NCBI GenBank assembly: GCA_000004695.1
Contig: CM000150.2
Coordinates: 1,856,001-1,920,000, forward strand
From: Dictyostelium discoideum
Taxonomy: Eukaryota
DNA: 64,000 bases
Reading direction: 5' to 3'
Below the pieces are notes generated by a model, which was given only the letters and a program-made list of their open reading frames with translations, did no database searches and had not been told where the DNA came from. Shown here one piece after another: positions 2,322 through 49,076 of the stretch. The stretch's first letter is position 1. Each line of letters begins with the position of its first letter. The translations under genes and the position numbers were made by a program.

Positions 2322-4328
2322 TTAAGCAACTTCACCAACAACAACAGTAGTTTCAGATGGCTTAACTTCTTCTGATTGAGTGGTTGGTTTGATTTCTTCA
2401 GTTGATTTAACTTCTTCTGATGAAGTTGTTGTGGTAGTGGTGGTGGTGTTTGATTCAACTGGTTTAACTTCTTCTGATGATTTGCCTTCCTCTTTTGATG
2501 ATTCGGCTTCCTCTTTTGATGGTTTGGCTTCCTCTTCTGATGGTTTAACTTCCTCTGATGGTTTAGCTTCTTCTGATGGTTTAACTTCTTCTGATGGTTT
2601 GACTTCTTCTGATGGTTTGACTTCTTCTGATGGTTTAACTTCTTCTGATGGTTTAACTTCTTCTGATGGTTTAACTTCTTCAGTAGTAGTGGTGGTAGTT
2701 GTAGTTGTTGTTGTTTTAGATTTTGATTCTTTAACTGGTTTTGATTCTTTAACTGGTTTAGCTTCAATGAAATTAAGGAATTGAGCAAAATCTTTTTTAA
2801 TACTAAGTGGGAAAACTACTTTTCTAACGAACCATGGAATAGTTTTATTCAAATTATCACTCATATCTTTATTTTGTGGAAGTTTAGCAGCATCAAGCAT
2901 AGCACCTAAACCAAACTTTGCTGATGATTCAGATTTCATTACTTTATGAATGGTATCACCAAGTTTAATTTGATCAGCTTTTGGAATTTGAACTGCAGTT
3001 GGTAAGATTAAACGTTCTTCATCGAAAAAGTGAATATAGATAATATCGATTTGTTCATTGAGATTAGTTTGTAATTTACCGAAAATTTCAGACCAACCCT
3101 CAGAGATGCTGTCTTTCAATTCGACATTGTCAGTGATTGATTTAACCAATTCTTCCAATTGTTTATTCTTTTCAATCCAATCGTGATGTTGAGTATCCAT
3201 AAGAGCTAAATGTTCAGCTACTTCTGGTTTCTTTTCTTTTAACCATGACCAGACAATGCTATCCTCATGACCATGATGATGATGGAGGAATTCATGAACT
3301 GATGAAACTGACTTAACCATTTCGACAACCTCTGCTCTTGATTTTGGTTCAAAGGTTTTCAATCTTTTTATTAATAAATTATAACAATGTTTAAGTGCTA
3401 CATGAGTCCAAAGCCAACCTCCCATCCAGAAATTTGTCTTTCCTTCATTCTTAAAGAATACTGAAAGATCATTTTCATCACGTCCATCTTCATTTTTAAT
3501 TGTTGTTAATACAATTGGTTCAACATTAACTTCTTCTGTTGCCTTTGTTTCTTTTGTTGATTCTTCAACTGGTTTTACTTCTTCTGATGATTTGACTTCT
3601 TCAGTTGGTTTTACTTCTTCAGTTGGTTTTACTTCTTCAGTTGGTTTGACTTCTTCAGTTGGTTTTGCTTCTTCAACTGGTTTGACTTCTTCAACTGGTT
3701 TGACCTCTTCGACTGGTTTGACTTCTTCAGCTTGTTTTACTTCTTCGACTGGTTTTACTTCTTCGACTGGTTTTACTTCTTCGACTGGCTTTACTTCTTC
3801 AGTTGGTTTAACTTCTTCGACTGGTTTTGCTTCTTCAACTGGTTTGACTTCTTCGACTGGTTTGACTTCTTCAACTGGTTTAACTTCTTCAACTGGTTTG
3901 ACTTCTTCAGTTGGTTTGACTTCTTCGACTTGCTTAACTTCTTCGACTTGTTTGACTTCTTCGACTTGTTTAACTTCCTCAGTTGGTTTGACTTCTTCGT
4001 CTTGTTTGACTTCTTCGACTGGTTTTACTTCTTCAGTTGGTTTGACTTCTTCAACTGGTTTGACTTCTTCGACTGGTTTGACTTCTTCAACTGGTTTAAC
4101 TTCTTCAACTGGTTTTACTTCTTCGATTGGTTTTACTTCTTCGACTGGTTTTACCTCTTCAGTTGGTTTGGTTTCTTCAACAGAGACTGATGTGGCTTCA
4201 ACTTTAATTTCTTCTGATGGTTGTTCAAGTTTTTCGTCTTCAATTGGTAAAGTATTTTCTACTTTAACTTCTTCGACTTTAGTTTCCTCTGAAACATTAG
4301 TTGGTGTTTCTAAATTGTTATCGCTCAT
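2322..4328 (-). CDS. Hemerythrin-like (HHE cation-binding) domain protein with N- and C-terminal EEVKP(V/T) tandem repeats (668 aa, single exon)
   Basis: Uninterrupted 2007-nt ORF. The central region carries hemerythrin signatures: WTHVALKHCYNLL, HEFLHHHHGHEDSIVWSWL, EHLALMDTQHHDWIEK, and the classic IHFFDEERLILP (HFxxEExxLFP-like). It is flanked by about 40 copies of the hexapeptide EEVKP[VTS], encoded by an 18-nt DNA period (3540-4200 and 2440-2700). Confidence 0.7.
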   Translation of the reverse strand: MSDNNLETPTNVSEETKVEEVKVENTLPIEDEKLEQPSEEIKVEATSVSVEETKPTEEVKPVEEVKPIEEVKPVEEVKPVEEVKPVEEVKPVEEVKPTEEVKPVEEVKQDEEVKPTEEVKQVEEVKQVEEVKQVEEVKPTEEVKPVEEVKPVEEVKPVEEVKPVEEAKPVEEVKPTEEVKPVEEVKPVEEVKPVEEVKQAEEVKPVEEVKPVEEVKPVEEAKPTEEVKPTEEVKPTEEVKPTEEVKSSEEVKPVEESTKETKATEEVNVEPIVLTTIKNEDGRDENDLSVFFKNEGKTNFWMGGWLWTHVALKHCYNLLIKRLKTFEPKSRAEVVEMVKSVSSVHEFLHHHHGHEDSIVWSWLKEKKPEVAEHLALMDTQHHDWIEKNKQLEELVKSITDNVELKDSISEGWSEIFGKLQTNLNEQIDIIYIHFFDEERLILPTAVQIPKADQIKLGDTIHKVMKSESSAKFGLGAMLDAAKLPQNKDMSDNLNKTIPWFVRKVVFPLSIKKDFAQFLNFIEAKPVKESKPVKESKSKTTTTTTTTTTTEEVKPSEEVKPSEEVKPSEEVKPSEEVKPSEEVKPSEEAKPSEEVKPSEEEAKPSKEEAESSKEEGKSSEEVKPVESNTTTTTTTTSSEEVKSTEEIKPTTQSEEVKPSETTVVVGEVA
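2440..4200 (-). repeat. Coding 18-nt tandem repeat arrays (gacttcttc[ag]actggttt period) encoding (EEVKPx)n; two blocks, 2440-2700 and 3540-4200
   Basis: Direct inspection: near-perfect 18-bp periodicity. The opposite-strand ORFs listed in the table (2380..2784+, 3592..4356+, 3732..4190+, 2306..2788-) are frame shadows of this repeat. Confidence 0.85.
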
Positions 4329-5998: not shown

Positions 5999-7226
5999 AT
6001 GAAATCTTTTACATACATTTCATTTTTAATTTGTATATTATTCATTTTTATAAATATTGGACATGGTCAAATTTGGGAAGGTCCAAATCAAGAGTTGGGT
6101 ACATATTTTAGTTATGATAAAATGCAAGATCTTAATTATGATGTAACAAATTGGACTGTAAAAACAACAGATCACGATAGAACATATAATAGGTAAATAT
6201 TAAATAACAATTTTAATTTAACAATAACAATTTAAAAAATAATATATTAATTTCTTTATTTTTTATTTTTTATTTATAGATATGATTATTCATTTTTAAG
6301 ACTTCACCTTCGTAATACAAAATTTTTTTTTCATGGTTATATAGATGTTCATCCAAGAGTCGATGAGTTTACAACAGTTAAATTCTTAAAAAGTAAATAT
6401 TATTTCTATTTTCTATATATTTATTTTATATAAGTTAATATTAATTAAAATTTTTTTATTTTTTTATTTATTTATTTTTAGCTGGTTTTATTTATGATAA
6501 GATTAATCCAGATTATAATGGTACAGTTATGGATAGAGATAATATGTATACTCTTTCAGGTGAACTTATTGGTCTTAAAAATGTAACAACCTATACACAT
6601 CAATGGGTAAATGTTAGTAGACCATGTTGGGTAAATGGTACAAGAGCAATCAATTCACAATGTAATGGTACAACAATCGATATGAAGCCAATGAGAAATT
6701 GGTATGTTAAAGAATTACAACGTTTTAAAACTGTAAAACAAGAACCAATTCAATTACCAGAAAAGAAACTTACTGACAAAAACTCTGAAACTTTTGTATC
6801 AACTTTTGTAATCGTTATACAATTGGATGATGGTAAAATTGTTGATGCCACGTGGGATGGTGATAGGTTGCCCGAAGTCTGTAAAAAATGTGATGCTTGT
6901 ATTGATAATCAGTGTGGTGTTTATTGGGAAGATATGCCATGTGACCAATATAATGGTTGTATTTTAAAAATTATTGTTGCATGGGCTGGTAGAGATGCTT
7001 CTGGTACTAATTGTCGTTCAATTAATAGAGTAATTATTAAAATTTTATTAAAAAAAAAAAAAAAAAAAAAAACAAAAACTAATTTATAAATTTATAAATT
7101 TTATTTCAATAGATTCCATCAAATTTCCAAAGATACTCAGCAACTCCATACAAAAACATTGGTCGTAACTTTTTCGACGATTTTATGTACCGTGCTACCT
7201 ATGGCAAAGATCCAAATATTGCTTAA
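5999..7226 (+). CDS. Secreted, N-glycosylated Cys-rich protein of unknown family (4 exons)
   Basis: Exon 1 spans 5999..6192: signal peptide MKSFTYISFLICILFIFINIGHG, donor gtaaat at 6193. Exon 2 spans 6280..6392 (acceptor tatag at 6278-79, donor gtaaat at 6393). Exon 3 spans 6482..7029 (acceptor ttttag at 6480-81; contains the ORF MDRDNMYTLSGELIGLKNVTTYTHQWVNVSRPCW...; donor gtaatt at 7030). Exon 4 spans 7113..7226 (acceptor caatag; ...IPSNFQRYSATPYKNIGRNFFDDFMYRATYGKDPNIA*). Phases are consistent (2/1/0). Multiple NxS/T sites and a CKKCDACIDNQCGVYWEDMPCDQYNGC motif. Confidence 0.6.
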
Positions 7227-7434
7227 ACCTATCTTTTAATTATTATAATAAAAAATATTTATATTTATTCAAAATTAATTTCAACAATTACTTTAAATTT
7301 TAATTATTATTTTGCAAATTAAATTAAATGATACAATACATTACAAATTAATTTTATTAGGTTTTATAAATTTAATATTCTTGAATTTAAAATTATATAT
7401 ATAAACTACTATCATAAAAAGAAAATTCAAAAAT

Positions 7435-7506
7435 GGCTCCATAGCATAGTGGTATTGCGCTTCCCTAGTAAGGAAGAGGTCATGAGTTCGATCCTCATTG
7501 GAGCCT
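7435..7506 (+). tRNA. tRNA-Thr (anticodon AGU)
   Basis: Cloverleaf folded by hand. Acceptor stem ggctcca/tggagcc; D-arm gcat-agtggta-ttgc; anticodon stem cttcc/ggaag with loop ctAGTaa (T33, A37); variable loop aggtc; T-arm atgag-ttcgatc-ctcat (B box gagttcgatcctc). 71 nt plus discriminator T; followed by T4. Confidence 0.9.
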
Positions 7507-7534
7507 TTTAAAATTCGATCAGGAATAGACCAAA

Positions 7535-7546
7535 GGATCGATTCTC
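7535..7546 (+). promoter_or_regulatory. ex-B-box-like element (ggatcgattctc) about 29 bp downstream of tRNA-Thr
   Basis: Sequence resembles the B-box consensus GGTTCGANTCC. Dictyostelium tRNA genes commonly carry an extra B box 20-40 bp 3' of the gene (established knowledge). It lies at the head of the downstream minisatellite. Confidence 0.5.
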
Positions 7547-7745
7547 ATGCATGGATTCTCATGCATGGATTCTCATGCATGGATTCTCATGCATGGATTC
7601 TCATGCATGGATTATCATGCATGGATTCTCATGCATGGATTCTCATGCATGGATTCTCATGCATGGATTATCATGCATGGATTCTCATGCATGGATTCTC
7701 ATGCATGGATTCTCATGCATGGATTCTCATGCATGGATTCTCATG
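7536..7745 (+). repeat. 14-bp minisatellite (gattctcatgcatg)x~15 with a few gattatcatgcatg variants
   Basis: Direct inspection. The unit contains the palindrome catgcatg and the 3' half of the ex-B-box-like motif. ORFs 7498..7788, 7547..7774 and 7551..7784 are artefacts of this repeat. Confidence 0.9.
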
Positions 7746-7916
7746 TGCGATTATTTTTATCAATTCACATCTAGAAAAACCTAAATGAAACTAAAAAAAA
7801 TGTTTGATGAACAGTAAAAAGACATTTTCTTTTTAATTTTTTTTTAATATTTACAATTGTTTTTTATTTTCTTATTATTTTTTTTTTTTTTTTTTTTTTT
7901 ATTTAAAATTTAATTA

Positions 7917-8240
7917 TTAAATAATTTCACTGATACTTTCAAAGAAAGAAATATTTGGGAAGGTAATATTATGAGCCATTAGACATGATTGGTCAATTAT
8001 AAAAGAATTAATATCAGTGCCTTCTTGTTCAATTAATTTTGTTGGTCGGGGGCTTGATAAAATGGCACCATCATCGAATCTTACACCAATGTATAAATCA
8101 ATTGTTGAAATTTTTATTTTGCAAGATTCATTTTTATTTAAATAAAATGTTTCTGATGTTCCATTTGTTAATAGAATAATTTCATGTTCAGTTTTATTTA
8201 CCAATTCAAACTGTTTTTTTGGTGATGATATTAATTTCAT
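7917..8240 (-). CDS. Hypothetical 107-aa ORF ([80 protein letters not shown]...) immediately 3' of the kinase-like gene
   Basis: Genuine ATG at 8240 and stop at 7917. Moderate complexity. No recognisable domain. It could be an independent small gene or a downstream exon. Confidence 0.25.
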
Positions 8241-8345
8241 AGATTTTGAAAATCTTAAAATTGGTTTATTCTTATAATTATTATTATTATTATTTTTAAA
8301 ATTAAAAAAGAAATTAGTTAATATTTTTTTATATTAAATAAATAT

Positions 8346-8948
8346 TTATATATGATTAAAATTATACAATACAATTATAAATGGATGATGTAATAAAGTT
8401 TGTGCATCTAATCTATCAGATAAATTAGTTGCTAAACAACTATGTAAGAAATCAAATTGTTCAGTTGGTAAATCATCAGGAATATTATTTAAAGATTTAT
8501 CTATCATTTTTAATAAAATAAAACCAAAACTCCAAATATCGGATTTATGAGTAAAATTATTTGATTTTAAAACTTCAGGTGATTGATAATCTTGATTTAA
8601 AAAATTAGTTTTTGTAACACCAAAATCAATTATTTTAATTGTAAGAGTTTCTGGAAAAATAATGACATTTGAACAATTTAAATCTCTATGTACAATTTGA
8701 TGATTATCCATAAAACGTAAAGCTAATAAAATTTGTTCACAAATTTCTCTAATAACTTCTTGTGAGAAAAAATTATTATTATCAAATTTATCAATTGAAA
8801 TTCCACCATTAATTGATTCCTGATAAATTATAACATTTTTTTCACTTTTTTTTTCATCAATATCATAGTGTTTTATAATTGATGGATGATTTAATTTTTT
8901 TAATTTATAAATTTCATTTTCATTCTAATTTTGTTAAATAAAAAAATA

Positions 8949-8979
<31 letters not shown>

Positions 8980-9086
8980 TATTTGGAATGAAAAACAATT
9001 TATTTTAAATTCCATTGTGTAAATAAAAAAAAACTTACATTATAATTTAATTTATTAATTTTTCTAATATCACATTCGATATCCAT
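8346..9086 (-). CDS. Truncated protein-kinase-like protein (C-lobe only; about 209 aa; 2 exons)
   Basis: Exon 1 spans 9086..9039 ([16 protein letters not shown], donor gtaagt is the reverse complement of 9033-38). Exon 2 spans 8924..8346 (acceptor ttag is the reverse complement of 8925-28): [21 protein letters not shown]...[13 protein letters not shown] (catalytic loop HRDLxxxN)...IIDFGVTK (DFG)...YQSPEVL (APE-like)...[11 protein letters not shown]...LHHPFI (subdomain XI). No GxGxxG loop or VAIK lysine anywhere upstream in frame. Confidence 0.6.
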
Positions 9087-10296
9087 TTTTTTATTATTAT
9101 CTATTATTTATTATTTATTGATTGTTCTCTTTGTTACTACTATAATTTTTATTTTATAATAGTTTTTTTTTTTTTTTTTTTTTTGTAAATAATAATTTTT
9201 AAATATTGAAAAGACACAAAATTATTATATAATAAAATTGAATATCAATTATTTTTTTTTTTTTTTTTTTTTAAAAAAAAATAATTAAATAATAAAAAAA
9301 ATAATAATAATTTATATAAAAAAATAATAATTTAAATAATTTTTTTTTTTTTTTTTTTAATTATCAAAAGATAAATTTTTAATTGAGGATCCTGTATATC
9401 GTATAGATTATATACAACACCACACAGTTAACACATATAAAAATAAACACATATTAATAACCAATACATAGTCTCAACACACACTTTTTTTTTTTTGCTT
9501 GTGTGGTTCCTATAATTTTTTCTTTCAAAAACAAAAAAAAAACAAAACAAAATCAAATTGGGGGTCACATGAATTGAAATTATTTATTTATAATTAAAAT
9601 ATTTTTTATTACTAATTGTTTTTTTTTTTTTTTTGAATTATTTTTTTTGAATACCAAGACATCAAAAATTTTATATCACTATTTTTACAATTATTATTAT
9701 TTTTTTTTTATTTATTAATTATTATTTTTTTTTTTTTATTTTTTTTTTTTTTTTTTGTGGGTGTGTTATTTGTGTATTGTATAAAATTTTACTGAATTAT
9801 TTTTGTGTTTGATTTTAGTTCAACGAATATGAAAATGTTTAAAAATAAATCGTATATGGGAACATGATGATGTTATATTTTTACATTATGATAATTAAAT
9901 AATCAAAAAAAAAAAAAAAAACAAATATAAAAATAAAAAAACACTTCTTTCCAATTTAGGAATATATCTTGATCCAATAAATGTAACAATATTATTTAAA
10001 TAAATTATTTGATTAATATGTATAATTATAATAATATTAAAAAAATAAATGTCCAATTTTTTTTTTTTATTTTATCATTGTTTAAAAAAATTAATGATTC
10101 TTAAATAATAGAGTTTTCCTCAATAATTAATTATAAAAAAAAAAAAAAAAATTCTTAATATTATTTGAATGTGAATGATATAAAATATATTAAAAAAAAA
10201 TATATATATATTTAATTATAACCAACAAATTTTTTTTTTTTTTGAACTACAAAGAATTCTTTTAATATATAGTTTATTATTTTCTTCTTTATTTTC

Positions 10297-10476
10297 TTAC
10301 TCTTCACTAAAACTTAAAAATTCATCTTCTTCACTTAAACTATAATCATTATCTTCTAAAACAGTATTATCTTCACCCTCTTTATTTATTTTCTTGATTC
10401 TATTACATTCACTCTCACTATAATAATTTTCTTTGTCTTCATGCTCACCCTTGTCACCATCATCTTCATCATCATC

Positions 10477-10521
<45 letters not shown>

Positions 10522-13500
10522 TTCATCCTCGTCTTCGTCTTCGTCCTCATCTTCATCATCATATTCATCTTCAGAATCTGAATGAGGTTGAATTAATCCA
10601 TTTGGATTTAAATAGTCATATTCTTGAATTTGTTGTTCTAAAACACTGATACCTTTGGAATCAATTGAGACCATTGAGTTTATTGAATGAACATATTGAC
10701 AAAATGGACCCCAAGTTCTATCTTTTTTTAAGAGTTTAGAATTACCAATTACAAATAATCCAAATTTAGCTCTTGTGAGTGCGACATTAATACGTCTACG
10801 ATCAGAAAGGAAACCAATTCTTTCGCTTCTTACACACGATAAAATTATGATATCTTTTTCTGAACCTTGAAAACCATCAATTGTTGATGTTTCAATATTT
10901 AATGGATAATTAAACTGTTTATGTTGTTCTTTGATTTCACTCTTTTGTAATTTATATGGCGTAATAATACCAAATGAGAACTTTTTACATTCTGGATAAT
11001 CTTGAACTAACTTTTTAATCAATGTGAATACCATTGTGATTTCTAATTTATTCTTTAATGATCTTTTACCACTTTCTTCTTTTGAATCAATAACATCATA
11101 GAATCTAATTGGACCATATTTGATATCTGAATGGAAATTATGTTGATTGTATACTAATGACTTTACATTATCACCATCTAATAATCTGTCTCTATAGAAT
11201 TGATTTGATGGGAATCTTGAAATTGTTGGATGCATACGATATTGAACATGTAACATTTCAACTGGTAATACTTTTGATAATCTTTCGAATAATGATATAT
11301 TTAAACCATTTTCTGCACTTTCTGTAGAGAAGATAGTTGGTGGTAATTGTAATGGATCACCAACGAGAATTAACTTTTCAATATTACCAATACATAATGG
11401 AATTATTGATGATGGTTCAGTTGATTGAGTTGATTCATCTACTAATATAATATCTGCTCTAAAGTTGTTCTTAACAGTTTCAGAACCACTTCCAGATAGA
11501 GTTGAGAAAACAATGGATGCTCTATAGATACTATCAGATTTCTCACGTTGAGTTTTATTGAAAATTGAAATACTATGACAATCTGGTGATATATTTTCCT
11601 TTTTACCAATACGTACCATATTTGGTAAATAAGGTTTACCATCTAAACCTATTAATTTCTTTTTTGAACATCTCTTTGCAATTTCATCTACTGATGCATG
11701 TGATGGACCACATACTAATATCTTGAATTCTGGATTAATTGCTAATAAAATTGAAAGTAAATAATAAATTGTTGTAGTTTTACCAGTACCTGGTGGACCT
11801 TGAATTAATGTAATACCTTTTGTTGATAATGATGTTTCAATTGAATTAAATTGTGATGTATTCAATTCTTGAATACACATGGATCTCAACAATGATGGAA
11901 TAGCCATTCTCTTTGAGGATAGTATATCGTGGTCTTTTCTTGATGGTTGTAAAATTTGATCAAATAGTATTCCAGAATTTCTAAAATCTTTTATTGCATT
12001 CAACTCTCTAATGAATGTAATGCAATTTGAAACTTTTATAAAGTATAACTTTTCTTTTATAGTATTGGAATCTTTCAAATAGTTTTTATGATTGAATGAA
12101 ATTGAATCAAACATTTCTATTATAGGATCCATTGAATCTGATGAATGAAATTTACATTTTACAATTTGTGTATTCTCTTCTAAATCAACATTTGAACAAT
12201 TGAGTACTAAACCCATTGCAAACATTGGTTCATTGGTATTATCAAATACTTTAAAAAGTAAAACATCATTATAAAATAATTCTTGGGACCCATCATTTAC
12301 ATCAATTTCAAACTTCATAATTGAATAGTCGGATATCTCTTTAAATGAGTGAATTGTTGGTCCATCAATCATCTTAATTTTATCTAAACCTATTAATGTA
12401 CCATCTTTTTCTGATATTGAAACACCTTCAATTTCATCAAATTCACCTGCAAGTTGTTTCCTATATTCCTCCACTATCAAAGGTTTCATTAAATCCATAT
12501 ATTCTTCATGATTTGAGTAACTTGATTTCAAATTTCTAATACTATTCACCTGTATTAATGGAATTCTTTCTGGACTAATCTTTAAAAATATTGATAATAT
12601 TTCGTAAGGACTCTTTAAAAAAACACTAACTAATTCACGAATTAATACAATTTTTAAAAAATTTTCATTATTATTATAATTGTTTTTATTATTATTATTA
12701 TTAAATTTATTATTTGATTTGGTTGTTGTTGTTGTAGTAGTTGTTGGTGTTGTTGTTGGTGTTGGAGTTGGTGTTGATGATGAGTTTATTAAAACCTTTT
12801 CATTTTTAATTAATTGATAAATTTCATTAAATAACAATTTTGAAATTAAGGTTAACCTTTCAGAGTTTAATAATTTAAAAGTTGGAATTTTAATAGCGGA
12901 ACGATTAATTTTTGTTTTAGATTTAAATTTTTTGATAAAACCATCAGAGAATTTACCTCTAATTAAATCTAAAAAGTTTAATTTAGTTTCATTATTTCTC
13001 TCTAATTCTAATTTCAATTGATCTGAATTTATGGGTCTAAAAGTTTTTGTTTTTTCTTTTAACTCTGAAATTTGTGAGAAATGGTTGAATTCTATCATTA
13101 CCATTAATGATAATGATTTTTGATAAATTGAATCAATATTTTCAGTATTTATATTATTTCTTTGAACCATTGAAATATCGTGTATTAATCTAATTTTTAA
13201 AACTTGAATATGCATATTAAATTGATTTTTGTTCTCATCAATTATTTTCTTTACTTGTTCTAATGATGGTTGATAAGATGGATTCAATTTTGATAATGTA
13301 TCCAATTTTCTAAAAATTAAATCTGCACTATTTGAATCTTCAAATATTAAATTTAATAAACTACGTTTCAATGGTTGGTTTATATCAAAAGTGGATGAAC
13401 CACTTTGAGGTGTTGTTGTTGTATGAGTGGTTGCGGTTGTGGTGGTTGTGGTAGGTGAAAGTGAATCTGGTTCAATCACTGATTTAGTTGAGGCAATTTT

Positions 13501-15103
13501 TTGTGGTATTTGTTTTATTGTTGGTTGGGCCTCGTTTGGTTTACCTGGATTTATTGGAGCTGGTAATGACGGTAAAGTTGTTGTTGTAGGAGTGGTTGTG
13601 GTTGTGGTTGTAGTTGTGGTTGTGGTTGTGGTTGTGGTAGGAGAAAGTGAATCCGGTTCAATCACTGATTTAGTTGAGGCAATTGTTTGTGGTATTTGTT
13701 TTATTGTTGGTTGGGCCTCATTTGGTTTACCTGGATTTATTGGAGCTGATAATGATGGTAAACTTGTTGTTGTTGTTGTTGTTGTCGGAGTGGTTGTGGT
13801 GGTGGGTCTTATTGAAGTTGTTGTGTTTGTGGTGGTTATGGTAGGTGAAAGTGAATCGGATCCAATCACTGATTTAGTTGAGGCAACTGTTTGTGGTATT
13901 TGTTTTATTGTTGGCTTGGCTTCATTTGATCTACCTTGATTTATTGGAGCTGAGAATAATGGTAAACTTGTTGCTGTCGTCGACGTTGTTGTTGTTGTTG
14001 TTGTTTTTGTTGTTTTTGGTGCATTTGAATAGATAGTATACTTTTCTGATAAAGATTTTCCTTTTCCTATTAGCTTCATACATTTTTCAAATGATTCACA
14101 AATTTTGATAAAATTTGAATCAATTAAACCATCTAAATACTCTGTAAATCTTAAATCATTGATACGATAATTTTTATTCTTTAAAACTGTTCTAAATTCA
14201 ATTAATTCTTTTTTTAATTTACTTGGAAAAATACATTTTTCAATATCTAAAAACGATATTGGCATTTCAAATTGTACAGAAGTTTCTATTTCAATTCTAC
14301 CTCTAATTTTTTGTATTCTATTTGATGTTAATCTTTTAAAAAAAAAACTAAACTCGATTAAAAAATTTAAATTACTATAATCACTATATAATTGATATAT
14401 ATTTCTTTTAATTATATCATCTTCATCTTCATCTTCACCTTCATCTTCATCTTCATCTTCATCTTTATTATTATTATTATTATTATAATATAATAAATCA
14501 TTTCTTTGAAAAAATGTAGGAAATTTAGAAGAGACATGAATTGAAGCTGTATATTTGACATTGTTGATTTTACGTAATAAAAAGAATTTTGATGAGGATT
14601 TAAGTAATACTTCTTGAATTTTACTTTGAAAAGTTGGAAAATAATTTTCAATATCCTCTAAACTATCTATTAATATTGATGAGTTTATAGTTTCAGTGGT
14701 AATTTGAGGTGTTGGTGATAAATTAATTGTTTCATTTAATTGAGTTAATAATACTCCAAGTTTTGGGTAAAGTGATTTTATATAATTTGAAACTGTTTGA
14801 TTTGGAAGAGGCAATGAGAAATCTGGAATCATATATGATTCTGTTTTATTTGTAGGAGTGAAAATATATGGTTTTGAAATTAAATTTGGATCAAAAGTAC
14901 CAATTTTTTTAAATTTTATTGAAATTCCACTTGATTTTAAATGATTTTTAAAGTCATTTATAGAATTTTTTTTTGAACTTTTTGTTTGTGAAAAATGATT
15001 CTTTAATAAATGTATTTGATAATGTACATTAAATTTTATAATGGTTTGAAATTTGATAAATTTATTAAAAAAATCACTTGATAAAATTAAATGCTCACTA
15101 ACT

Positions 15104-15198
<95 letters not shown>

Positions 15199-15670
15199 TA
15201 AAAAATTATTCTTTATTTCTTTTAATAATTTTTTTTTTAATTTTTCAATCAGAGTAGTAAAAAAATCATCTTCCAAAGCTTCAATTATAAATTCTAGTTG
15301 ATCTACACATGTTGGAAATTGGACTTTTAATTGTTTAATTGTTTCTAATTGTTTTTTGGGGTTATTACATTCTTTAAATATTAATTTTATTAGATTATTA
15401 TTATTATTATCATCATTATTATCATCATTATTATTATTATTATTATTACTATTATTATTACTATTATTATTATTGTTATTATTATTATTAATGGTATTTG
15501 TCGATGATAATTCAGATTGCGTTGGATTTATTAATGACAAAGAAGGTGACAGATTTTTGCTTTCACTAGAAAAATTAAATGAGAGTTAGAAAAATGGCAA
15601 AAAAAAAAAAAAAAAAAAAAAAATATCTAATATCAATATTTTACTCTTCTGTTTTTAAAATAGAACCCAT
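10297..15670 (-). CDS. Giant UPF1/SEN1-like SF1B RNA/DNA helicase, paralog A (about 1764 aa; micro-exon plus one intron; no NTase domain; acidic D/E tail)
   Basis: Exon 1 spans 15670..15645 (ATG GGT TCT ATT TTA AAA ACA GAA GA; donor gtaaaa). The 79-nt intron has acceptor tttttctag (reverse complement of 15566-69). Exon 2 spans 15565..10297 (phase 2 closes as GAT). All helicase motifs are present: I TLIQGPPGTGKTTTIYYL; Ia ILVCGPSHASVDEIA; II ILVDESTQSTEP; III LILVGDPLQLPPTIFS; IV QYRMHPTISRFPSNQFYRDRLLDG; V DGFQGSEKDIIILSCVRS; VI IGFLSDRRRINVALTRAKFGLFVIGN. N-terminal region: four copies of a helical module with an LIEFSNL/LMVMIEFNHFSQ motif, separated by T/P/S-rich linkers including three tandem 57-aa repeats (13440-13990). 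Ends in a poly-D/E tail. Confidence 0.8.
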
Positions 15671-16261
15671 ATTTTTTTTTGTGTAGGTGATAATAAAAAA
15701 AAAAAAAAAAAAAAAAAAAATTAAAAAACAATACAATAATATATCCAATTATATACAATTATATATACAATGGTTTTATTTGTTGTGTTGAATTTTTAAA
15801 ATAAAAAATAAAAAAATTTTCAAATACGAATCAAAATTTGGGTTTTAAAAAAAAGAAAATTCAAAAAAAAAAAAAAAAAATCAAAAAAAATTAAATTAAA
15901 AATCCGATTAAGTACGATTTAAAATAAAAAAAAAAAAAATAAATAATAAAATGAAATAATATAAAAAAAAATAATAAAATAAAATTATAAAAAAGAAAAA
16001 ATTTGTATCATTTATTTTAAAATAAAAGAATAAAAAAAATTAATTTAAAACTTTACTTTTTTTTTTTTTTATTACTAAAATAAATGGACAATTTAAAAAA
16101 AAAAAAAAAAATAAAAAAAATTTTAAAAAATGGAAAAATTTTGATTTGTCGTCCCCAAAAAAAAATCAAAGAGAAAAAGAAAAAAAAATAAAAAAAAAAA
16201 AAATTTGGTTATTTTTTTTTATTTTTTTTTTTTTTATATAAATAGATATTTTCAATTGTGT

Positions 16262-16680
16262 TTATAAAAAAAGAGTTAAAATGAGTTTAGGGACATTAGT
16301 TTTAAAAAAAAAAAACGTAGGTAAAATTGGTGGATTTAATGACTGAAGGAAATGAATTACCATATTAACTAAACAGAATGAACTAAATGTTTTCTCTGCT
16401 GCATTATTTAAATCTTTTGAGATTGCCCACCATTTTACTAATAATGCTAAATCTATACATCTATTATCAATTGAACAATATTCACCTAACAATAATGAAT
16501 TGTGATAACTAATCATTGAATTAAAACACATATCGAAATGAATACCTGATGATATCTCTTTGAATCTAATGATTGGTATTTTTGCATCCATTCTTTTTTC
16601 AATTAATTTATATTGTTGAGATCTATTTAAGTATTTATAAACTTGTTTTAAATAAGTTGTATCTTCCTTTTGAATACATG
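16262..16680 (-). pseudogene. Orphan fragment of the Cid1-like nucleotidyltransferase domain (copy of paralog-B region about 17853-18200)
   Basis: Translates (ORF 16262..16591 plus upstream) to ...KEDTTYLKQVYKYLNRSQQYKLIEK..MDAKIPIIRFKEISSGIHFDMCFNSMISYHNSLLLGEYCSIDNRCIDLALLVKWWAISKDLNNAAEKTFSSFCLVNMVIHFLQSLNPPILP, then diverges. No start, no upstream helicase. Confidence 0.75.
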
Positions 16681-16689
16681 AAAATATAT

Positions 16690-16843
16690 CACCAGATTGT
16701 CATCGTATATCTCTTTTTGATAAAACACTAGCACAAAGAAAAGAAATTCTTAAGAATGCAAATATTGTTTTCTCAACATTATCAGCAAGTGGTTCTGGTC
16801 CTGTTAGAAGTAACTTTAAAGCAAATATTGTACATGCACAAGT
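16690..16843 (+). pseudogene. Inverted orphan fragment of the helicase domain (matches the reverse complement of paralog B about 19690-19850: ...PDCHRISLFDKTLAQRKEILKNANIVFSTLSASGSGPVRSNFKANIV)
   Basis: Plus-strand sequence is the reverse complement of the minus-strand helicase coding sequence and is fused directly to the NTase fragment. It breaks off into a degenerate (acaggt..)n stretch at 16850-16930. Confidence 0.7.
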
Positions 16844-17354
16844 ACAAGTTTAACAGGTTCATCAGATTTAACAGGTTTAACTGGTACAGGTAAAGGTTTT
16901 TACAGGTTTAGCAGATTCAGGTAAAGGTTGTCAGGAAGATTATAAATCTACCTATGCACTATGACATTAGGAGTGGTTTAATATTTTTTAATACTTAGAC
17001 AATAATAACAATAAAAAAACAAAAAAAAATTTTATTTTTATTTCTTAAAAAAGTAAACAAAATAAATAAAATAGAAATTTTGCCTATTGCAATAGTAAAG
17101 ATACAATTTTTAAAAATTTAAAATCGAAGTCATAATTTAATAAATAAAAATAAAAATAAAATTATTTGTTTTTTTAAATAATTCCCATGGAATTTAGATT
17201 TTGCCTTAAGAAATCTATCCGTAAATATTTTTACAAGATTAAAAAAAAAAAAAAAATTCAAATTTACTTGTCCTTTTATTTATTTTAATTTAAACAAAAA
17301 AAAAAAAAAAATGGTTTGGGTATTATTTTTTAATTTTTTTTTTTTTGTAAAACT

Positions 17355-20300
17355 CTAAGAAAGTAATCCATTTGACGATAATGATAAATTCTCTTTGAAT
17401 AAATCATTAATTGTTGTTTTGGTTGATCTTAAAGAATATTCCATCATTGTGAATTCCATTAATACTCTTTGGTATGTTTTTTTAATTGATGATGCTAAAT
17501 TTCTATCATTAATAAATGGATCAAGTACAATGATATGACCTTTTACTGGTGTACCCTTTATAGTTGATCTTTTTAATAATGCTCCATTTTCACATAAACT
17601 ACCACCACCACTTGAGTGACTAATTGATATGATATTCTCTTTATAATTAAATGTTGAATAATAATAAAAGAATTGATAAAACAATTGAGCGATTGTCAAT
17701 TTGTTTCTTTTTGGTTCAAATTTGTTAAAACTTGACCAATCATAATATTTAACTAAATAATTTTCTACGATTGTTTGTGATTTTAATTTAATTAAATTTC
17801 TATCTGTTGAATACTTTTCTAATAGTTGATTTGATGTTGTTTGTAAATTTGGTAAAATTGGTGGATTTAATGACTGAAGGAAATGAATTACCATATTAAC
17901 TAAACAGAATGAACTAAATGTTTTCTCTGCTGCATTATTTAAATCTTTTGAAACTGCCCACCATTTTACTAATAATGCTAAATCTCTACATCTTTTATCA
18001 ATTGAACAATATTCACCTAACAATAATGAATTGTGATAACTCATCATAGAATGAAAGCACATATCGAAATGAATACCTGATGATATCTCTTTGAATCTAA
18101 TGATTGGTACTTTTGCACTAATTCTTTTTTCAATTAATTTATATAGTTGAGATCTATTTAAATATTTATAAACTTGTTTTAAATGAGTTGTATCTTCTTT
18201 TTGAGTACTTGAGAAATTAATATCTAAATCACTATCATTCAATGATAATCCACTCAAGAATGAACCATATAAATTAATTGATGCTGTTGCGAAACCTTCT
18301 GATATTAATTTCTTTAATCTATTATAACTATCTTGTTTAATTGATTTCTTTTTACATTCAATTTTTGAAATAATTTCATTAAGAGAATTATTTGTTTTTG
18401 ATGATGATAAAGATTGTGAAATTTCTTGTATTTCTAAATTATTTAAAACTTTCTTTAAATATGAATCCAAGAGACGTGAATATTTAACAAAACTATCTCT
18501 TAATGTTTTCTTTTTTGATAAAGTTGATTGATCTATTTTTTCTTGATTTGATTTTTGTAATTCTATAATAATATTAATAAGAGTGTTTGGAAAATCTTTA
18601 TCAATGATTAAATTATTTGAATCTGGTGAAACTGTCTCATCTTCATCATCATCATCGCTGATACTATAATATTCATCATCATCATCATCCAAATCATCAT
18701 TATCTTCACCTTCTTGATTAATTTTCTTGATTCTATTACTTTCATCATCTTCATCATGCTCTTGTATTTCTTCATTATCTTCATCTTCGTCTTCCTCTTC
18801 ATCTTTACCATCATATTCATCTTCAGAATCTGAATGGAATTCAATTAATCCATTTGGATTTAAAGAGTCATATTCTTGAATTTGTTGTTCTAAAACACTG
18901 ATACCTTTAGAATCAATTGAGACCATTGAGTTTATTGAATGAACATATTGACAAAATGGACCCCAAGTTCTATCTTTTTTTAAGAGTTTAGAATTACCAA
19001 TTACAAATAATCCAAATTTAGCTCTTGTGAGTGCGACATTAATACGTCTACGATCAGAAAGGAAACCAATTCTTTCACTTCTTACACATGATAAAATTAT
19101 AATATCTTTTTCTGAGCCTTGAACCCCATCAATTGTTGATGTTTCAATATTTAATGGATAATTAAACTGTTTATGTTGTTCTTTGATTTCACTCTTTTGT
19201 AATTTATATGGCGTAATAATACCAAATGAGAACTTTTTACATTCTGGATAATCTTGAACTAACTTTTTAATCAATGTGAATACCATTGTGATTTCTAATT
19301 TATTCTTTAATGATCTTTTACCACTTTCTTCTTTTGAATCAATAACATCATAGAATCTAATTGGACCATATTTGATATCAGAATGGAAATTATGTTGATT
19401 GTATACTAATGACTTTACATTATCACCATCTAATAATCTGTCTTTATAGAATTGATTTGATGGGAATCTTGAAATTGTTGGATGCATACGATATTGTGTA
19501 TTTAACATTTCAACTGGTAATACTTTTGATAATCTTTCAAATAATGATATATTTAAACCATTTTCTGCACTTCCTGATGAGAAAATAGTTGGTGGTAATT
19601 GTAATGGATCACCAACAAGAATTAACTTTTCAATATTACCAATACATAATGGAATTAGTGAAGCTGGTTCAGATGATTGAGTTGATTCATCTACTAATAC
19701 AATATTTGCTTTAAAGTTACTTCTAACAGAACCAGAACCACTTGCTGAAAGAGTTGAGAAAACAATATTTGCATTTCTAATAATTTCTTTTCTTTGTGCT
19801 GGTGTTTTGTCATAGGGTGATATACGATGACAATCTGGTGATATATTTTGAAGTTTACCAATACGTACCATATTTGGTAAATAAGGTTTACCATCTACAT
19901 TTATTAAACTCTTTTTTAAACATCTCTTTGCAACTTCATCTACTGATGCATGTGATGGACCACATACTAATATCTTGAATTTTGGATTAATTGCTAATAA
20001 AATTGAAAGTAAATAATAAATTGTTGTAGTTTTACCAGTACCTGGTGGACCTTGAATTAATGTAATACCTTTTTTTGATAATGATGTTTCAATTGCATTA
20101 AATTGTGATGCATTCAATTCTTGAATACAAATGGATCTTAACAATGATGGAATCTCCATTCTCATTGATGTCATTAAATTATAAACTTCCAATGATGGTT
20201 GTAAAATTTGATTTAAAAGTGTTTTTGAATTTTTAAACTCTTCTGTTGCTTCTAATTCTCTAATGAATGTAGTACTATTAGAAACCTTTATAAAATGTAA

Positions 20301-23300
20301 AATATCTTTTGAATATCTTTTCGAATTCAATGAAACTGAATAAAACTTTTCAATTAATGGTTTCGTTGAATCCGATAATACAAATTCGCAAATTATTTTT
20401 TGTTTTTTACTTTTTAATTCTGAAGATCTTGTAACTAAACTCAATGCAAACATTGGTTTATTTGTATGATCAAATGCTTTAAAAAGTAAAATATCATTAA
20501 GGTATATTTCCTCTAATTCATCCTTAACTTTAATATTAAATGTAATTTCAACAGAATCCTCCGACAACTCTTGGAATGAATGAATTGTTGGTGTATCATT
20601 CATTTTAACTCTATCTAAACCTATTAATGTACCATCTTGTTCTGATATTGAAATACCTTCAATTTCATCAAAATCACCTTCGAGTTGTGCTCTATATTCT
20701 TCTACTATTAAAGGTTTCATTAAATTTACAAATTCTGATTGGTCAGAATAACTATCTTGTAATGAATGAATATTATCAGCTTGAATTAATGGAATTCTTT
20801 CTGGATTACTCTTTAAAAATATTGACAATATCTCTTCAGAATCTTTTGAAATTACTTCAACATGATCACGAACTAAAACAACTTTTCTATTATTATTATT
20901 GTTATTTCTTGATCTTATTGTAGTTGTTGCAGTTGCTGTTCCTGTTGGGGATTTGATAAACAACTTTTCACTTTTAATTAATTGGTGAATTTCATTAAAT
21001 TGTAACTTTGAAATTAAACCTAACTTTTCAGAGTTTAATAATTTAAAAGATGGAATCTTTAAAGTTGAACCATTGATTTTTGTTGTTGATTCAAAGTTAC
21101 TGACGAGATTATCAAAGAATTTACCTTTAACTATATTTGAAAATTCTAACTTCGTTCTATTTTTTTTTGCTAATTCTGAATTCAACTGATTGTATTTGTG
21201 TCTACAAGTCTTTGTTTTTTCTTTTAATTCTGAATACTGTGAGAAATGATTAAACTCTAATAATACCATTAATGATAATGACTTGTTATATATTTTTTCA
21301 ATATTTTGATTGCTTGTATTATTTTTTTGAATCTTTGAAATATCTGTTTTTAATCTATTTTTAATAGCATTAATAGTTGAATTAAATTGAGTTATACTCT
21401 CATTGATAATATCATTCACTTGTTCAATTGATTTTTTCTTTGATGGATATGATTTAAATAATCTATCCAATGTTTTAATAATTGAATCTGCACTAGTTGA
21501 ATCTTCAAATATTAATTTCAATAAACTATGTTTCAATGATTGGTTTATATCAAATGTAGTAGTAGCAGCACTAGTATTATTAGAAGCAGATGATGCTGTA
21601 GTTGATTTATCTGTTGATGTTGTTGCAGAGGTATTTGCAGTGGTTGAGGTTGTTGTTGTTGTTGTTTTTGTTGTAGCTTTATCTTTTATAATACTAGTGG
21701 TAGTTGAAGCTGTAGGTGTTTTTGAACTTGTTGTATTAGATATTTTTTGTGAATTTGAAAGTGATAAATCTTTATAATCTAATACTAAAGATTTTATATG
21801 AATTATAAAAGATTTTATTAAAGTTCCAATTGTATTATCACTTTCATTTTTATGACCAAGTGGTAATTTAAATAATTCTACATTCATCACATATTCAGTT
21901 TTTTTAGATTTAATATTTAATTTTACTTGTTCTGGAATATAGTTTGAAATGTCTATTGATTTTTGATCAATAAATGCTTCAACTTTAATACAAAATCTTT
22001 GGTGGTGAGTATTCAATAAATTGAATGCCTCTGATCTAGAATCCAAAAAGGTTGGTGAGTTTTTAACTGTGAAATTTTTATCAAAATATTCTTTAATATA
22101 ATTTCTTTGCACTAAATTACTAAATTCAATTAATGAAATGATTGTAAAAATTGTTTCATTAATTTCATTAAATTTTGATGGATTTACACTTGATTTTAAT
22201 AATTTTCTTATATCTTTTGATGTACCAATTCTATAAGATTCAGTCTTTTTTTTGAATGGTAAAACTATGTCTTTTACCATTGATTTAATTGAATCTATTT
22301 GTAAATTAAATGTTGGATATTGATTCTTTAAACTATCAATTGCTTCTGGTTTGTTAAAAAATGTATTAAATAATGAAAATATTTGTTTTTCAATATTTGA
22401 TGGTGTCTTCAAAATTACTGTTGGTATATTTGATAATAATTCTTTTGGTGTTGATGTTGGTGTTGGTGTTGGTGTTGGTGTTGGTGTTGGTGTTGGTGTT
22501 GGTGTTGGTGTTGGTGTTGGTGTTGGTGTTGGTGTTGGAGTTGGAGTTGGAGTTGGAGTTGGTGTTGGTGTTGGTGTTGGTGTTGGTGTTAGTGTTGGTA
22601 TTGGTTGTGTTGTTGTTGTTGAGTTTGATAAAAGTTGATAATCTAAAATTAAAGATTTTATATAAATCAAATGTGATTCGATTAATGTTCCAATGGTATT
22701 ACTTTCGATATTCTTGTGACCAAGTTCTAATTTAAATAAACCAATATTAAATAAAACTTTTTTAGAATCTAATTCTAACTTCAATGGTTTTGGAACAAAT
22801 TTTGAAACAAAAGATGGATTTTGACTAATAAATTCCTCTAGATTGATTTTTGATTTTTGATATTGAGTTTCCAATAAACCAAAAGCCTCTAATTGTAAAC
22901 TTGCTTGGTGTGTGATTTTGACTATATTTTTTTCAATATATTTTTTAACACTACTTCTTTGGATTAGATTACTCAACTCTATTAATGAAATGATTGTAAC
23001 AAATATTGTTACAATTTCATCAAACTTTTTTGAATTTATCTTTGAATTCAATGATTTTTTAAGTTGATTTAATGTTGTAATTTTCACTGAATCAATATTG
23101 GTTTGACTTTCTTTTATAAAAGTTTCAACTGATAATAATTCTGATTTAAAACCTGGGTATTTTTTAATCAAACCTTGAATATCTTCTGATCTGTGGAATA
23201 ATTTATTAAAAATTGAAAAAACTACGATTTCAGTAGTTGTTGGTTTTGTTTGTTGTTGGCTATTTATAACTTTTGATACCAATGATGGTGATGTTGCTAA

Positions 23301-24273
23301 TGGTACTGTTGGTGGTGATACAGTTGTTGTTGTTGTTGCTAATGACACTGCTGGTGGTGTTATATCAATAACTGATGTAGATGATATTTTCTGTTCTATT
23401 GTAGTTGTACCTAAACATTTATTATATAATTTACAAAGGTTGATAAAGTTTGATTGAATTGAAATTGATATATCTTGAGAATCTGAAAATTTTAAATAAT
23501 TTATTTTATAATTTTTACCCTTTAAAATAAATTTGAAATCATTTGAAATTTGACGAAATTTTGATGGATAATTACATTTGAAAACCTCTGATAATGTTAT
23601 TGTTATATTTTGAGCTGACAATTGATCATAAAGCCTTTGTTTTTGATCAGCTGTGATTGATGTATCATCTGTAAATAATTTCTTTAAAATTAATCTTTGA
23701 TATAAAAAACTAAATTCAATCATAATTTTCAATGCTATAAAATCATTATAAATTTGAAAAATATCGTTATTATTATTATTACGATTGATATTATTTAATA
23801 AATTTGTTTTTTTAACTAATTTACTAAATTTATCAGAGACATCTATTGAAGAAGATGTTTTAATAATTCCAATTTTATTCTCTAAAGAAGTTTTATCATT
23901 TTCTAAAATTTCTTTAATTTTCTTAATATCGAAATTTGGAAATAATTTACAAACACCATTAATTCCATTTATGATATCTTTTAAATTACTATGCTTGAAT
24001 ATAGTTTTAAAAATATCATTTTCATTACTATTTATAATTTGTGAATTTTCAGTAATATTCAATTTGTTCATATTATTTATTATTGAATCCATTGTACTAT
24101 TGGTGTTAGTGTTGGTAGTGGTAGTGGTACTGGTGGTGGTAGTGGTACTGGTGGTGCTCGATTCTACAGTTGTTTTTGTTTTTTCTGGTACGCTTTGAGA
24201 AATTGGATTGTTATTATTTGATGAAGGTGGTGGTGGTGGTGGTGGTGAAGTTGATGAATTTGGAATATTTTCC

Positions 24274-24310
<37 letters not shown>

Positions 24311-24413
24311 AATGGGAATTAGGAAAACAGGTATAACATAGAATTTTAAAATTTTATGAATTGAATTTTATAATATTAATATTTTACCCTTCTGTTTCTA
24401 AAGAAGAACTCAT
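17355..24413 (-). CDS. Giant UPF1/SEN1-like helicase fused to a C-terminal Cid1/GLD2-type nucleotidyltransferase (TUTase/ncPAP) domain, paralog B (about 2314 aa)
   Basis: Exon 1 spans 24413..24388 (ATG AGT TCT TCT TTA GAA ACA GAA GG; donor gtaaaa). The 114-nt intron has acceptor tttttttag (reverse complement of 24274-76). Exon 2 spans 24273..17355. The table ORF (17355..24092) starts at an internal Met; the frame is open upstream to the acceptor. Helicase motifs match paralog A (about 18900-20300). After an acidic linker the C-terminal region (about 17355-18500) carries the Pol-beta NTase signature ASINLYGSFLSGLSLNDSDLDINFS (Cid1: GSFKSGLYLPTSDIDL), a third carboxylate in IHFDMCF, and a PAP-associated domain LLLGEYCSIDKRCRDLALLVKWWA..FSSFCLVNMVIHFLQ. 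Four N-terminal helical modules with (TP)n linkers encoded by (ggtgtt)n. Confidence 0.85.
22445..22612 (-). repeat. (ggtgtt)n / (ggagtt)n hexanucleotide microsatellite encoding a (TP)n linker inside paralog B. Equivalent arrays lie at 30125-30300 in paralog C.
   Basis: Direct inspection: about 28 tandem hexamers. The plus-strand ORFs 22351..22638 and 22373..22735 are shadows. Confidence 0.85.
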
Positions 24414-25041
24414 TTACAATTGTTGATTATTTTTTTTTTTTTCTTTAATTTTTTTTTTTTTTTTTTTTTTGGATCTTTGTTTTTTTTTTTTTTTTCTATT
24501 TTTTTTTTTTGAGAAAATGAGAAATTAGGTTTAAAAAAAAAAAAAAAAAATTTGTCAAATTTAAATTCCCGTAAAATTTTTTTTTTTTTTTTTTTTTTTT
24601 CACGAAAAAAAAGGGAAATTTAAATTTGAATCAAAAAACCATTTTTTTTTTTTTTTTCATTTTATTTTTTTTTATTTTTTTTTACCAAAATGATTTAAAC
24701 TTATTTATTTTTAATTTAAATTTGGTTTAGATAAATAGAACACAAAAATACACAAAATTATATAAAAAATAAAAAAAATGAATGTAGTCATCCCATTTTA
24801 TTTTTTTTTTTTTTTTTTTTTTTAATATTTTTATAAATCACCAGAAATTCAAAATATCTCTCGCTTTTATAAAATCAAAAAACTATGGGTAATTAATTTA
24901 AAAAAATTGGATATCTCCAAAGTAAAAAAAAAAAAAAAAATACAAATTTACTTGTCCTTTTTATTTATTTTAATTTAAACAAAAAAAAAAAAAAATGGTT
25001 TGGGTATTATTTTTTAATTTTTTTTTTTTTTTAAAAAAACT

Positions 25042-34849: not shown

Positions 34850-36315
<1,466 letters not shown>

Positions 36316-37272: not shown

Positions 37273-37643
37273 GTTTTTTTGAGTGAATTTAATATTGAGC
37301 CTTTTGGAATTGGTTGAATGTAACATTCAATCCTAACAGTTGTCGAGGAAATTGCGCTACACGAGGAGTAATAACCAATCTTTAACATTAATGGTGTTGA
37401 ATTTTTTGAATTGTTGGGTAATGAAAAAATAAGAATGAAAAAGTTTTAATTTAATTTTTTTTTTTTTTTTATTATTTTTTTTTTGTGATATTATTCGGTG
37501 GTATTCGTTGGGAAAGTGTTTGAAAAAGATTTTTTTTTTTTTTTAAAATTATTATTTTCTTCTTTGGTTGAAATAAAAAATTCAAAAATAGTAATTCAGA
37601 GTAAGGGCATAATTTGATAATTGTAAAACGAGTTTTGGATTTG

Positions 37644-38279: not shown

Positions 38280-38321
<42 letters not shown>

Positions 38322-38492: not shown

Positions 38493-38528
<36 letters not shown>

Positions 38529-42936: not shown

Positions 42937-43023
<87 letters not shown>

Positions 43024-43152: not shown

Positions 43153-43189
<37 letters not shown>

Positions 43190-48997: not shown

Positions 48998-49076
<79 letters not shown>

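Follow-up and report, generated by a model that had tools for sequence, protein, structure and literature searches.

Three tandem paralogs in Dictyostelium discoideum that encode large, Upf1-like helicase proteins share a catalytic core in which near-identity of all three is confined to two patches of 857 bp and 300 bp, which were likely overwritten by interlocus gene conversion within an old tandem family. The genes are located on contig CM000150.2 of the assembly GCA_000004695.1, in a stretch of 64,000 nucleotides (positions 1,856,001 to 1,920,000 of the forward strand) that is here called the window and whose first nucleotide is position 1 of all coordinates given below. The window has a GC content of 22% and contains no ambiguous bases (Ns = 0). 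It harbors three very long open reading frames (ORFs) on the minus strand, which are arranged head-to-tail in tandem and belong to the genes A (10297–15540), B (17355–24092), and C (25042–32337).

Two tracts of near-identity in the helicase core

Gene A aligns at positions 10484–13392 with B (18742–21557) and C (26456–29277) over 2.9 kb, with an overall identity of 82% in self-BLAST. The sliding identity of the MAFFT alignment is about 70–75% over most of this common region but reaches 94–100% in 100-bp windows at positions 10595–11395 of A and is high again at 11695–11895. The tract boundaries were defined by segmentation of the alignment of A against B and C with a two-state hidden Markov model, which assigns states of low divergence to positions 10591–11447 and 11602–11901 of A and states of high divergence to the intervening segment (11448–11601) and to both flanks (10484–10590 and 11902–13392).

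The larger of the two putative conversion tracts in A (tract 1; 10591–11447, minus strand, 857 bp) covers helicase motifs II–VI, i.e., the RecA2 half of the core, and matches B at 18843–19699 and C at 26560–27416, with identities of 97.2% (A–B), 97.1% (A–C), and 98.4% (B–C). The smaller one (tract 2; 11602–11901, minus strand, 300 bp) surrounds motif I (GPPGTGKT) and is 95.7% identical to B (19854–20153) and 97.4% identical to C (measured over 11667–11901). They are separated by an island of 154 bp between motifs Ia and II (11448–11601, minus strand) that has remained A-type, with identities of 69% to B and 74% to C (the latter measured over 11448–11666). The counterparts of the entire segment comprising both tracts and the island are located at 18843–20153 in B and 26560–27870 in C, both on the minus strand. 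Motif I and motifs II–VI form the two coding blocks that are best conserved in the genes, and the tracts match these blocks.

The junctions of the tracts in A are aligned without gaps and in frame, and the tracts are flanked on either side by older, homologous A-type sequence that is likewise in frame. A map of the site patterns reveals a run of 254 bp within tract 1 that is identical between A and B, and also private substitutions in each of the copies (about 18 in A, 7 in B, and 8 in C). In neighbor-joining (NJ) trees, the branch of A collapses onto B and C in the tract columns only. A first-pass annotation of the window had reported an identity of about 97% among the three genes in the C-terminal half of the helicase; both the value and its location are reproduced by self-BLAST, the sliding profile, and the segmentation. 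It had also proposed a sliding-window comparison of the copies, which yields a divergence profile that is not uniform but drops sharply in two tracts. The second tract and the island are additions to that initial observation.

Synonymous divergence

The near-identity of the core extends to synonymous sites, in agreement with the first-pass annotation. Estimated by the method of Nei and Gojobori, the synonymous divergence (dS) in tract 1 is 0.078 (A–B), 0.086 (A–C), and 0.078 (B–C), whereas the homologous 5′ flank has a dS of 0.51 (A–B) and 0.55 (A–C) (Fisher's exact test, p ~1e-12). In tract 2, the dS between A and B or C is 0–0.054, and the proportion of synonymous differences (pS) is 0/57.5 for A–B and 3/58 for A–C (p = 8e-11 and 7e-8). 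The values for A against B and C are 0.37–0.40 in the island and 0.47–0.61 in the acidic tail. The reduction in synonymous divergence is 6- to 7-fold for tract 1 and 10-fold or more for tract 2, with p values of the tract-versus-flank contrasts between 1e-13 and 7e-8. A scan against permuted columns yields z = -18 when all sites are considered and z = -9.6 when only third codon positions are included.

The ratio of nonsynonymous to synonymous divergence (dN/dS) between A and B or C is lowest in the tract region (0.04–0.16). Although 80% of the sites in tract 1 are nonsynonymous, 12 of the differences between B and C are synonymous and only 2 are nonsynonymous (binomial p = 3e-7), indicating that the residual differences are real substitutions that have been filtered by selection. 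The proposed conversion of the catalytic core is strengthened by the fact that the tracts are bounded and that the drop in divergence is equally strong at synonymous sites: a patch with reduced synonymous divergence that is embedded in old, homologous sequence, which remains in frame on either side, points to gene conversion rather than to crossover or insertion. The alternative suggested by the first-pass annotation, in which the catalytic half was duplicated recently, does not fit, because the tracts replace homologous sequence and add none.

Genes B and C form a mosaic pair

Genes B and C are tandem duplicates whose 3′ ends are 7.68 kb apart and which have an identity of 90% over 6.2 kb (self-BLAST). 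Their high identity from the helicase onward, including the 3′ flank, had been recognized before and is confirmed: it amounts to 96.5% from the helicase to 113 bp beyond the stop codon. The 3′ flank of B (17241–17354, minus strand) matches that of C (24925–25041) at 98%, and the duplicated unit ends here.

The synonymous divergence between B and C varies along the genes. The dS of the N-terminal modules M1, M2, M3, and M4 is 0.16, 0.29, 0.16, and 0.10, respectively; it is 0.13 in the region 1B, 0.079 in the helicase, and 0.067 in the nucleotidyltransferase, so that the 3′ 4 kb has a dS of about 0.07–0.08 (M2 versus 3′ region, Fisher p = 5e-9). The differences between the two genes are overdispersed (variance/mean 3.8), and two stretches of the nucleotidyltransferase region, of 265 and 240 bp, are free of any difference (p = 0.0002). 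The decrease in dS from M2 to the 3′ end and the presence of identical runs make it likely that homogenization between B and C was biased toward the 3′ end; part of it may be more recent.

The region of B and C that corresponds to the island in A has an identity of 89.6% (98.4% in tract 1) but a similar pS (0.105 vs. 0.074). The idea that the island was skipped also by the homogenization of B and C was therefore rejected; the additional differences are nonsynonymous, which indicates that the island is merely under weak constraint. An apparent sub-mosaic within tract 1, where four sites private to B are followed by four sites private to C, was likewise dismissed after a runs test made by hand (6 runs observed, 7.5 expected; not significant).

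Relic fragments between genes B and A

The intergenic region between B and A contains a patchwork of two relic fragments. A nucleotidyltransferase relic of 371 bp (16320–16690, minus strand) is 94.4% identical to B (17851–18224) and 93.9% identical to C (25538–25911). It is joined, via a microhomology of about 10 nt, to a helicase relic of 152 bp in inverted orientation (16681–16832, plus strand), which is 91% identical to B (19849–19698) and 89% identical to C. B and C are equally distant from the relic; the private changes of relic, B, and C number 13/7/9 and 4/5/7 in the two pieces. The inverted piece corresponds to positions 11446–11598 of A, which is nearly the same segment as the unconverted island of A (11448–11601).

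Mechanism, timing, and alternative explanations

The patches may have arisen by homologous repair, either by synthesis-dependent strand annealing or by double-strand-break repair, that used a paralog 8–16 kb away as template. In such an event, the helicase core of A would have been patched with B/C-type sequence, or the transfer would have occurred in the reverse direction, leaving the island and its surroundings untouched. Conversion may have been limited to the coding blocks of highest conservation, as the identity would have sufficed for strand invasion and the extension of heteroduplex only there, with the fast-evolving island and the acidic tail, which is laden with GAT/GAA repeats, presumably acting as heterology barriers. 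Since A, B, and C are equidistant in tract 1 and the relic has diverged to the same extent from B and C, the pattern suggests a single past episode rather than continuing homogenization. This episode of duplication, rearrangement, and conversion would date to about the time when B and C last shared a sequence, with independent divergence ever since (dS ~0.08).

The first-pass annotation had envisaged ongoing or very recent conversion, i.e., that frequent exchange among the three copies keeps the catalytic half uniform. The overdispersed differences and long identical runs between B and C agree with such a process, as does the run shared by A and B in tract 1. Ongoing concerted evolution, however, is expected to produce near-zero divergence, whereas the dS in tract 1 is 0.078–0.086 in every pair, each copy has accumulated private substitutions, the relic pseudogene is of equal depth, and the sites private to B or to C do not cluster significantly. 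Continuing exchange is therefore unlikely for the trio, and at least for A, the claim of the first-pass annotation cannot be upheld. It is also rather improbable that A is a chimera of an older paralog and B/C-type pieces, created by the rearrangement that duplicated the B/C unit, e.g., by template switching (microhomology-mediated break-induced replication). A chimeric origin would account for the star pattern formed by B, C, the relic, and the tracts of A, for the two-piece patchwork of the relic with its inverted segment and its microhomology joint, and for the fact that the helicase piece of the relic comprises almost exactly the island that A did not acquire. Nevertheless, it would require four in-frame, indel-free junctions at homologous positions, which are the natural outcome of homologous repair; moreover, A bears no scar of a duplication or insertion, and single crossovers between direct repeats would have removed the DNA in between.

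Selective constraint, or an overlapping function at the nucleotide level, might in principle have held the C-terminal half of the helicase unchanged; dN/dS is lowest in this region, and the helicase motifs are all located in or beside the tracts. This explanation is extremely improbable in view of the strong reduction in dS in both tracts and the result of the scan of third codon positions. In addition, a fourth paralog from Dictyostelium cf. discoideum and the homolog of D. purpureum are only 42–89% identical to A, B, and C in the columns of tract 1, and reach only 56–63% in those windows in which A, B, and C agree at 99–100% of the sites; the tandem pair of Acytostelium subglobosum has no such tract but a nucleotide identity of 67–75% throughout. 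The divergence of these outgroups in the same columns argues that the likeness of A, B, and C is not caused by constraint. The analysis covered the assembled sequence, and tandem repeats of 7.7 kb in a genome with 22% GC are difficult to assemble, so that repeat collapse or cross-polishing could have made the copies alike. Such an artefact is highly improbable, because the copies are 97% and not 100% identical, the private differences show a strong synonymous excess whereas about 80% of errors would be expected to be nonsynonymous, the tracts terminate in frame and at matching homologous positions, and the three ORFs are intact over 1764–2523 codons without any Ns. The concern about collapse or misassembly raised by the first-pass annotation is thus addressed from the sequence, with the synonymous excess and the intact ORFs arguing against it.

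Several observations weigh against gene conversion as the explanation of the tracts or are not accounted for by it. The near-exact correspondence between the island and the inverted relic does not follow from simple conversion. It could mean that the donor carried a rearrangement of this segment that blocked heteroduplex formation across the island, or that the relic and the patches in A stem from one event of template-switching repair. The GC content at third codon positions is not elevated in the tracts, so that an independent mark of biased conversion is lacking, and GC-biased conversion was dropped as a candidate process for this reason. In the motif TIDG(F/V)QGSEKD, A retains the ancestral F and B and C share V; the common V indicates no more than a joint history of B and C after the transfer, in whichever direction it occurred. 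The searches recovered no ortholog of the locus in a sister strain or species.

Interlocus conversion and partial concerted evolution of tandem paralogs have been documented for paralogs of Caenorhabditis (PMC3966223), mammalian gene pairs (PMC2720389), and CEACAM genes (PMC7042247), and islands of divergence are known to persist despite conversion (PMC3728101). The array of D. discoideum resembles these cases in its short tracts of 0.3–0.9 kb with sharp boundaries, its homogenized synonymous sites, and the proximity of the partners, which here are within 8–16 kb; as in these cases, only the most conserved coding block is affected, and divergent islands and terminal domains escape. With 0.3 and 0.86 kb, the tracts have lengths that are commonly seen in conversion. 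Particular to this array are the three-way star that dates the event and the relic that mirrors the unconverted island; otherwise, there is no difference in kind. The phenomenon is well known, and the array is a new instance in an uncharacterized gene family that is conserved across dictyostelids.

Gene models and domain architecture

Each of the three genes begins with a conserved first exon of only 23–26 nt (encoding MGSILKTE.., MSSSLETE.., and MNYLTTE.. in A, B, and C), followed by a GT..AG intron of 79–114 nt, which corroborates the micro-exons that had been postulated at the 5′ ends. Gene A (10297–15670) comprises exon 1 (15645–15670), an intron (15566–15644), and exon 2 (10297–15565), and encodes a protein of 1764 aa with N-terminal helical modules, a linker with repeats of 62–68 aa, a superfamily 1 (SF1) helicase, and an acidic tail. 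Gene B (17355–24413) comprises exon 1 (24388–24413), an intron (24274–24387), and exon 2 (17355–24273); its product of 2314 aa consists of four N-terminal modules, the SF1 helicase, an acidic linker, and a Cid1-type nucleotidyltransferase. Gene C (25042–32712), with exon 1 (32690–32712), an intron (32591–32689), and exon 2 (25042–32590), encodes 2523 aa and has the same architecture as B. All three genes are on the minus strand, and their spliced models (1764–2523 codons) have no internal stops. All copies are intact and under purifying selection.

The helicases of A, B, and C are Upf1-like members of SF1 (Pfam AAA_11/AAA_12, E values of 1e-42 to 1e-60; 7e-45 and 1e-59 in A), and the best matches among solved structures, with the helicase of B as query, are Sen1 (5e-69) and Upf1 (2e-62). 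All core motifs are retained (GPPGTGKT, DESTQ, GDPLQLPPT, YRMHP, TIDG[FV]QGSEKD, and NVALTRAK), and the three proteins possess the RecA-like AAA_11/AAA_12 core with motifs I, II, III, IV, V, and VI that characterizes Upf1-like helicases of subfamily SF1B. The F in TIDG(F/V)QGSEKD is present in A and Acytostelium, whereas the V common to B and C is derived. The likeness to the 5′–3′ RNA helicases Sen1/senataxin and Upf1 thus comprises the core motifs, the Pfam domains, and the closest structures. Unlike Sen1, however, the proteins have no Sen1 N-terminal domain, and unlike Upf1, they have no CH domain; they carry instead three to four copies of a helical module of about 200 aa, and B and C are fused to a nucleotidyltransferase.

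The nucleotidyltransferase of B and C is located at the C-terminus, beyond the acidic linker, and is recognized by PF22600, PF19088, and PF03828 (MTPAP-like_central, TUTase, and PAP_assoc). The last 440 aa of B match the solved structures of TUT4 (6e-34), TUT7, URT1, GLD2, and Cid1, and the catalytic residues (G-S...DxD and hDh) are present in both proteins (YGSFLSGLSLNDSDLDINF and HFDMCF). The hallmarks of the Cid1 family, a Pol-beta-type palm with G[SG] and a DxD...D triad and a PAP-associated domain, are found in B and C only; the protein of A has no nucleotidyltransferase domain detectable with Pfam, and there is no trace of one downstream of its acidic tail. The domain in B and C thus resembles TUT4, TUT7, URT1, Cid1, and GLD-2 in its fold and catalytic residues, and its predicted activity is the tailing of RNA; it differs from these enzymes by its covalent fusion to an SF1 helicase and by its absence from the paralog A.

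Assemblies of a helicase and a non-canonical polymerase are represented by TRAMP (Mtr4 and Trf4/5) and by RDRC of fission yeast (Hrr1 and Cid12). B and C are comparable to these assemblies in the pairing of an RNA helicase with a tailing enzyme of the Cid1 family, but in TRAMP and RDRC the two activities reside on separate subunits, and the helicase of TRAMP belongs to SF2, whereas B and C combine both in one polypeptide. The analogy suggests a function of B and C in RNA surveillance or in small-RNA pathways.

N-terminal modules and linkers

The N-terminal halves of the proteins (encoded at 20949–24041 in B, 28669–31959 in C, and 12781–15417 in A) consist of modules of about 200 aa with T/P/S-rich linkers in between. 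There are four copies of the module in B and in C and one clear and two weak copies in A; almost no variation is seen at the F, P, I, EF, Q, L, and K positions of the module. A confident structural model of one module (AlphaFold, AF2) is mostly helical (predicted local distance difference test, 88; predicted template modeling score, 0.87) and has no significant relative among solved structures. A profile of the module did not detect the N-terminus of the homolog of D. purpureum.

The linkers change through repeat slippage. B has a (TP)n repeat at 22445–22621 and C has P/T/S repeats at 30142–30260, as described in the first-pass annotation, whereas the linker specific to A (13439–14013, minus strand), which occupies the place of M3 in B and C, has three repeats with a period of 186–204 bp (62–68 aa) rather than the period of 57 aa reported there. 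The N-termini of B and C are 85% identical and thus far closer to each other than either is to A. The dN/dS between B and C is 0.60–0.77 in the modules, 0.25 in the helicase, and 0.45 in the nucleotidyltransferase; the modules are under weak constraint, which is no demonstration of positive selection. The suggested rapid diversification of the N-terminal region therefore agrees with the weak constraint on B and C but not with the divergence of A, most of which is old (dS ~0.5). That the modules might recognize the substrate is a guess.

Homologs in other dictyostelids

The nearest homologs of the three genes are all from dictyostelids. Full-length fusions of helicase and nucleotidyltransferase are encoded by D. 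purpureum (one gene, 2271 aa), Heterostelium album, Synstelium, Cavenderia fasciculata (three genes, two of them nearly identical), Polysphondylium violaceum (two adjacent genes), and Acytostelium subglobosum (two tandem genes), and in an NJ tree, the paralogs cluster by species. The closest sequence is a paralog from Dictyostelium cf. discoideum (57–59% identity); that of D. purpureum is 40% identical. Protein database look-ups returned no exact matches to the ORFs of B and C or to the spliced protein of A, the best match in a word-indexed protein search had an identity of 36%, and an exhaustive search of representative sequences yielded none above 57%. Literature searches turned up no specific account of this helicase family or of conversion in helicases of Dictyostelium.

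The family member of Dictyostelium cf. discoideum (GCA_054859205.1, JBTAPH010000031.1; positions 6819–11861 of the extracted locus) has a permuted domain order, with the nucleotidyltransferase (7821–8740) upstream of one helical module, the region 1B, and the helicase. Nucleotidyltransferase and module are part of a single ORF (8057–9928). The public annotation splits the gene into products of 922 aa and 593 aa, which are separated by an intron-like gap of 72 bp. The gene adjoins four actin genes. The helicase–TUTase genes of A. subglobosum (locus 10001–20480), P. violaceum, and C. fasciculata are likewise arranged in tandem or adjacent to each other, with paralogs grouping by species. Two of the copies of C. 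fasciculata fall into the same 90% identity cluster but are located on different contigs, which may reflect a recent duplication or conversion.

Implications

No general principle is altered by these results; that tandem paralogs may evolve partly in concert is textbook knowledge. The array nevertheless provides a clean, small case of conversion that is confined to conserved catalytic blocks and leaves a heterology island. Phylogenetic trees and duplication dates that are built from the helicase core of this family will be misleading, because the core has a dS of about 0.08 and the rest of A one of about 0.5. The results also draw attention to a dictyostelid family of helicase–TUTase fusions with lineage-specific tandem copies, a domain-permuted member, and a helical module that has no relative among solved structures.

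A more speculative scenario, to which we give little credence, is that the array represents a dictyostelid-specific family with fast turnover that functions in RNA surveillance or is defence-like, with a uniform engine (the helicase with or without the TUTase) that is kept alike by conversion and a varying number of modules that choose the target. A single template-switching event would then have duplicated B and C, patched A, and left the relic. If so, the proteins would be built like immune receptors, with weakly constrained helical modules choosing an RNA or protein target.

Other features of the window

The window also contains a direct duplication of about 2 kb that is unrelated to the helicase genes (37444–39652 and 40106–41998). 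It lies in a very AT-rich stretch, and its copies are 83–85% identical; the duplicated pairs are 38353–39652 and 40689–41998, and 37444–38120 and 40106–40737. An ORF of 668 aa on the minus strand (2322–4328) has imperfect tandem repeats (3526–4181, copies 82–85% identical) and a weak match to the hemerythrin domain. A gene for tRNA-Thr (AGU) is located in a locally GC-richer stretch on the plus strand (7435–7506). Scattered stretches that resemble simple repeats (35331–35558, 42857–43423, 48951–49153, 58705–58926, and 62616–62810) have a mutual identity of 80–95% and are probably coding or non-coding low-complexity repeats.

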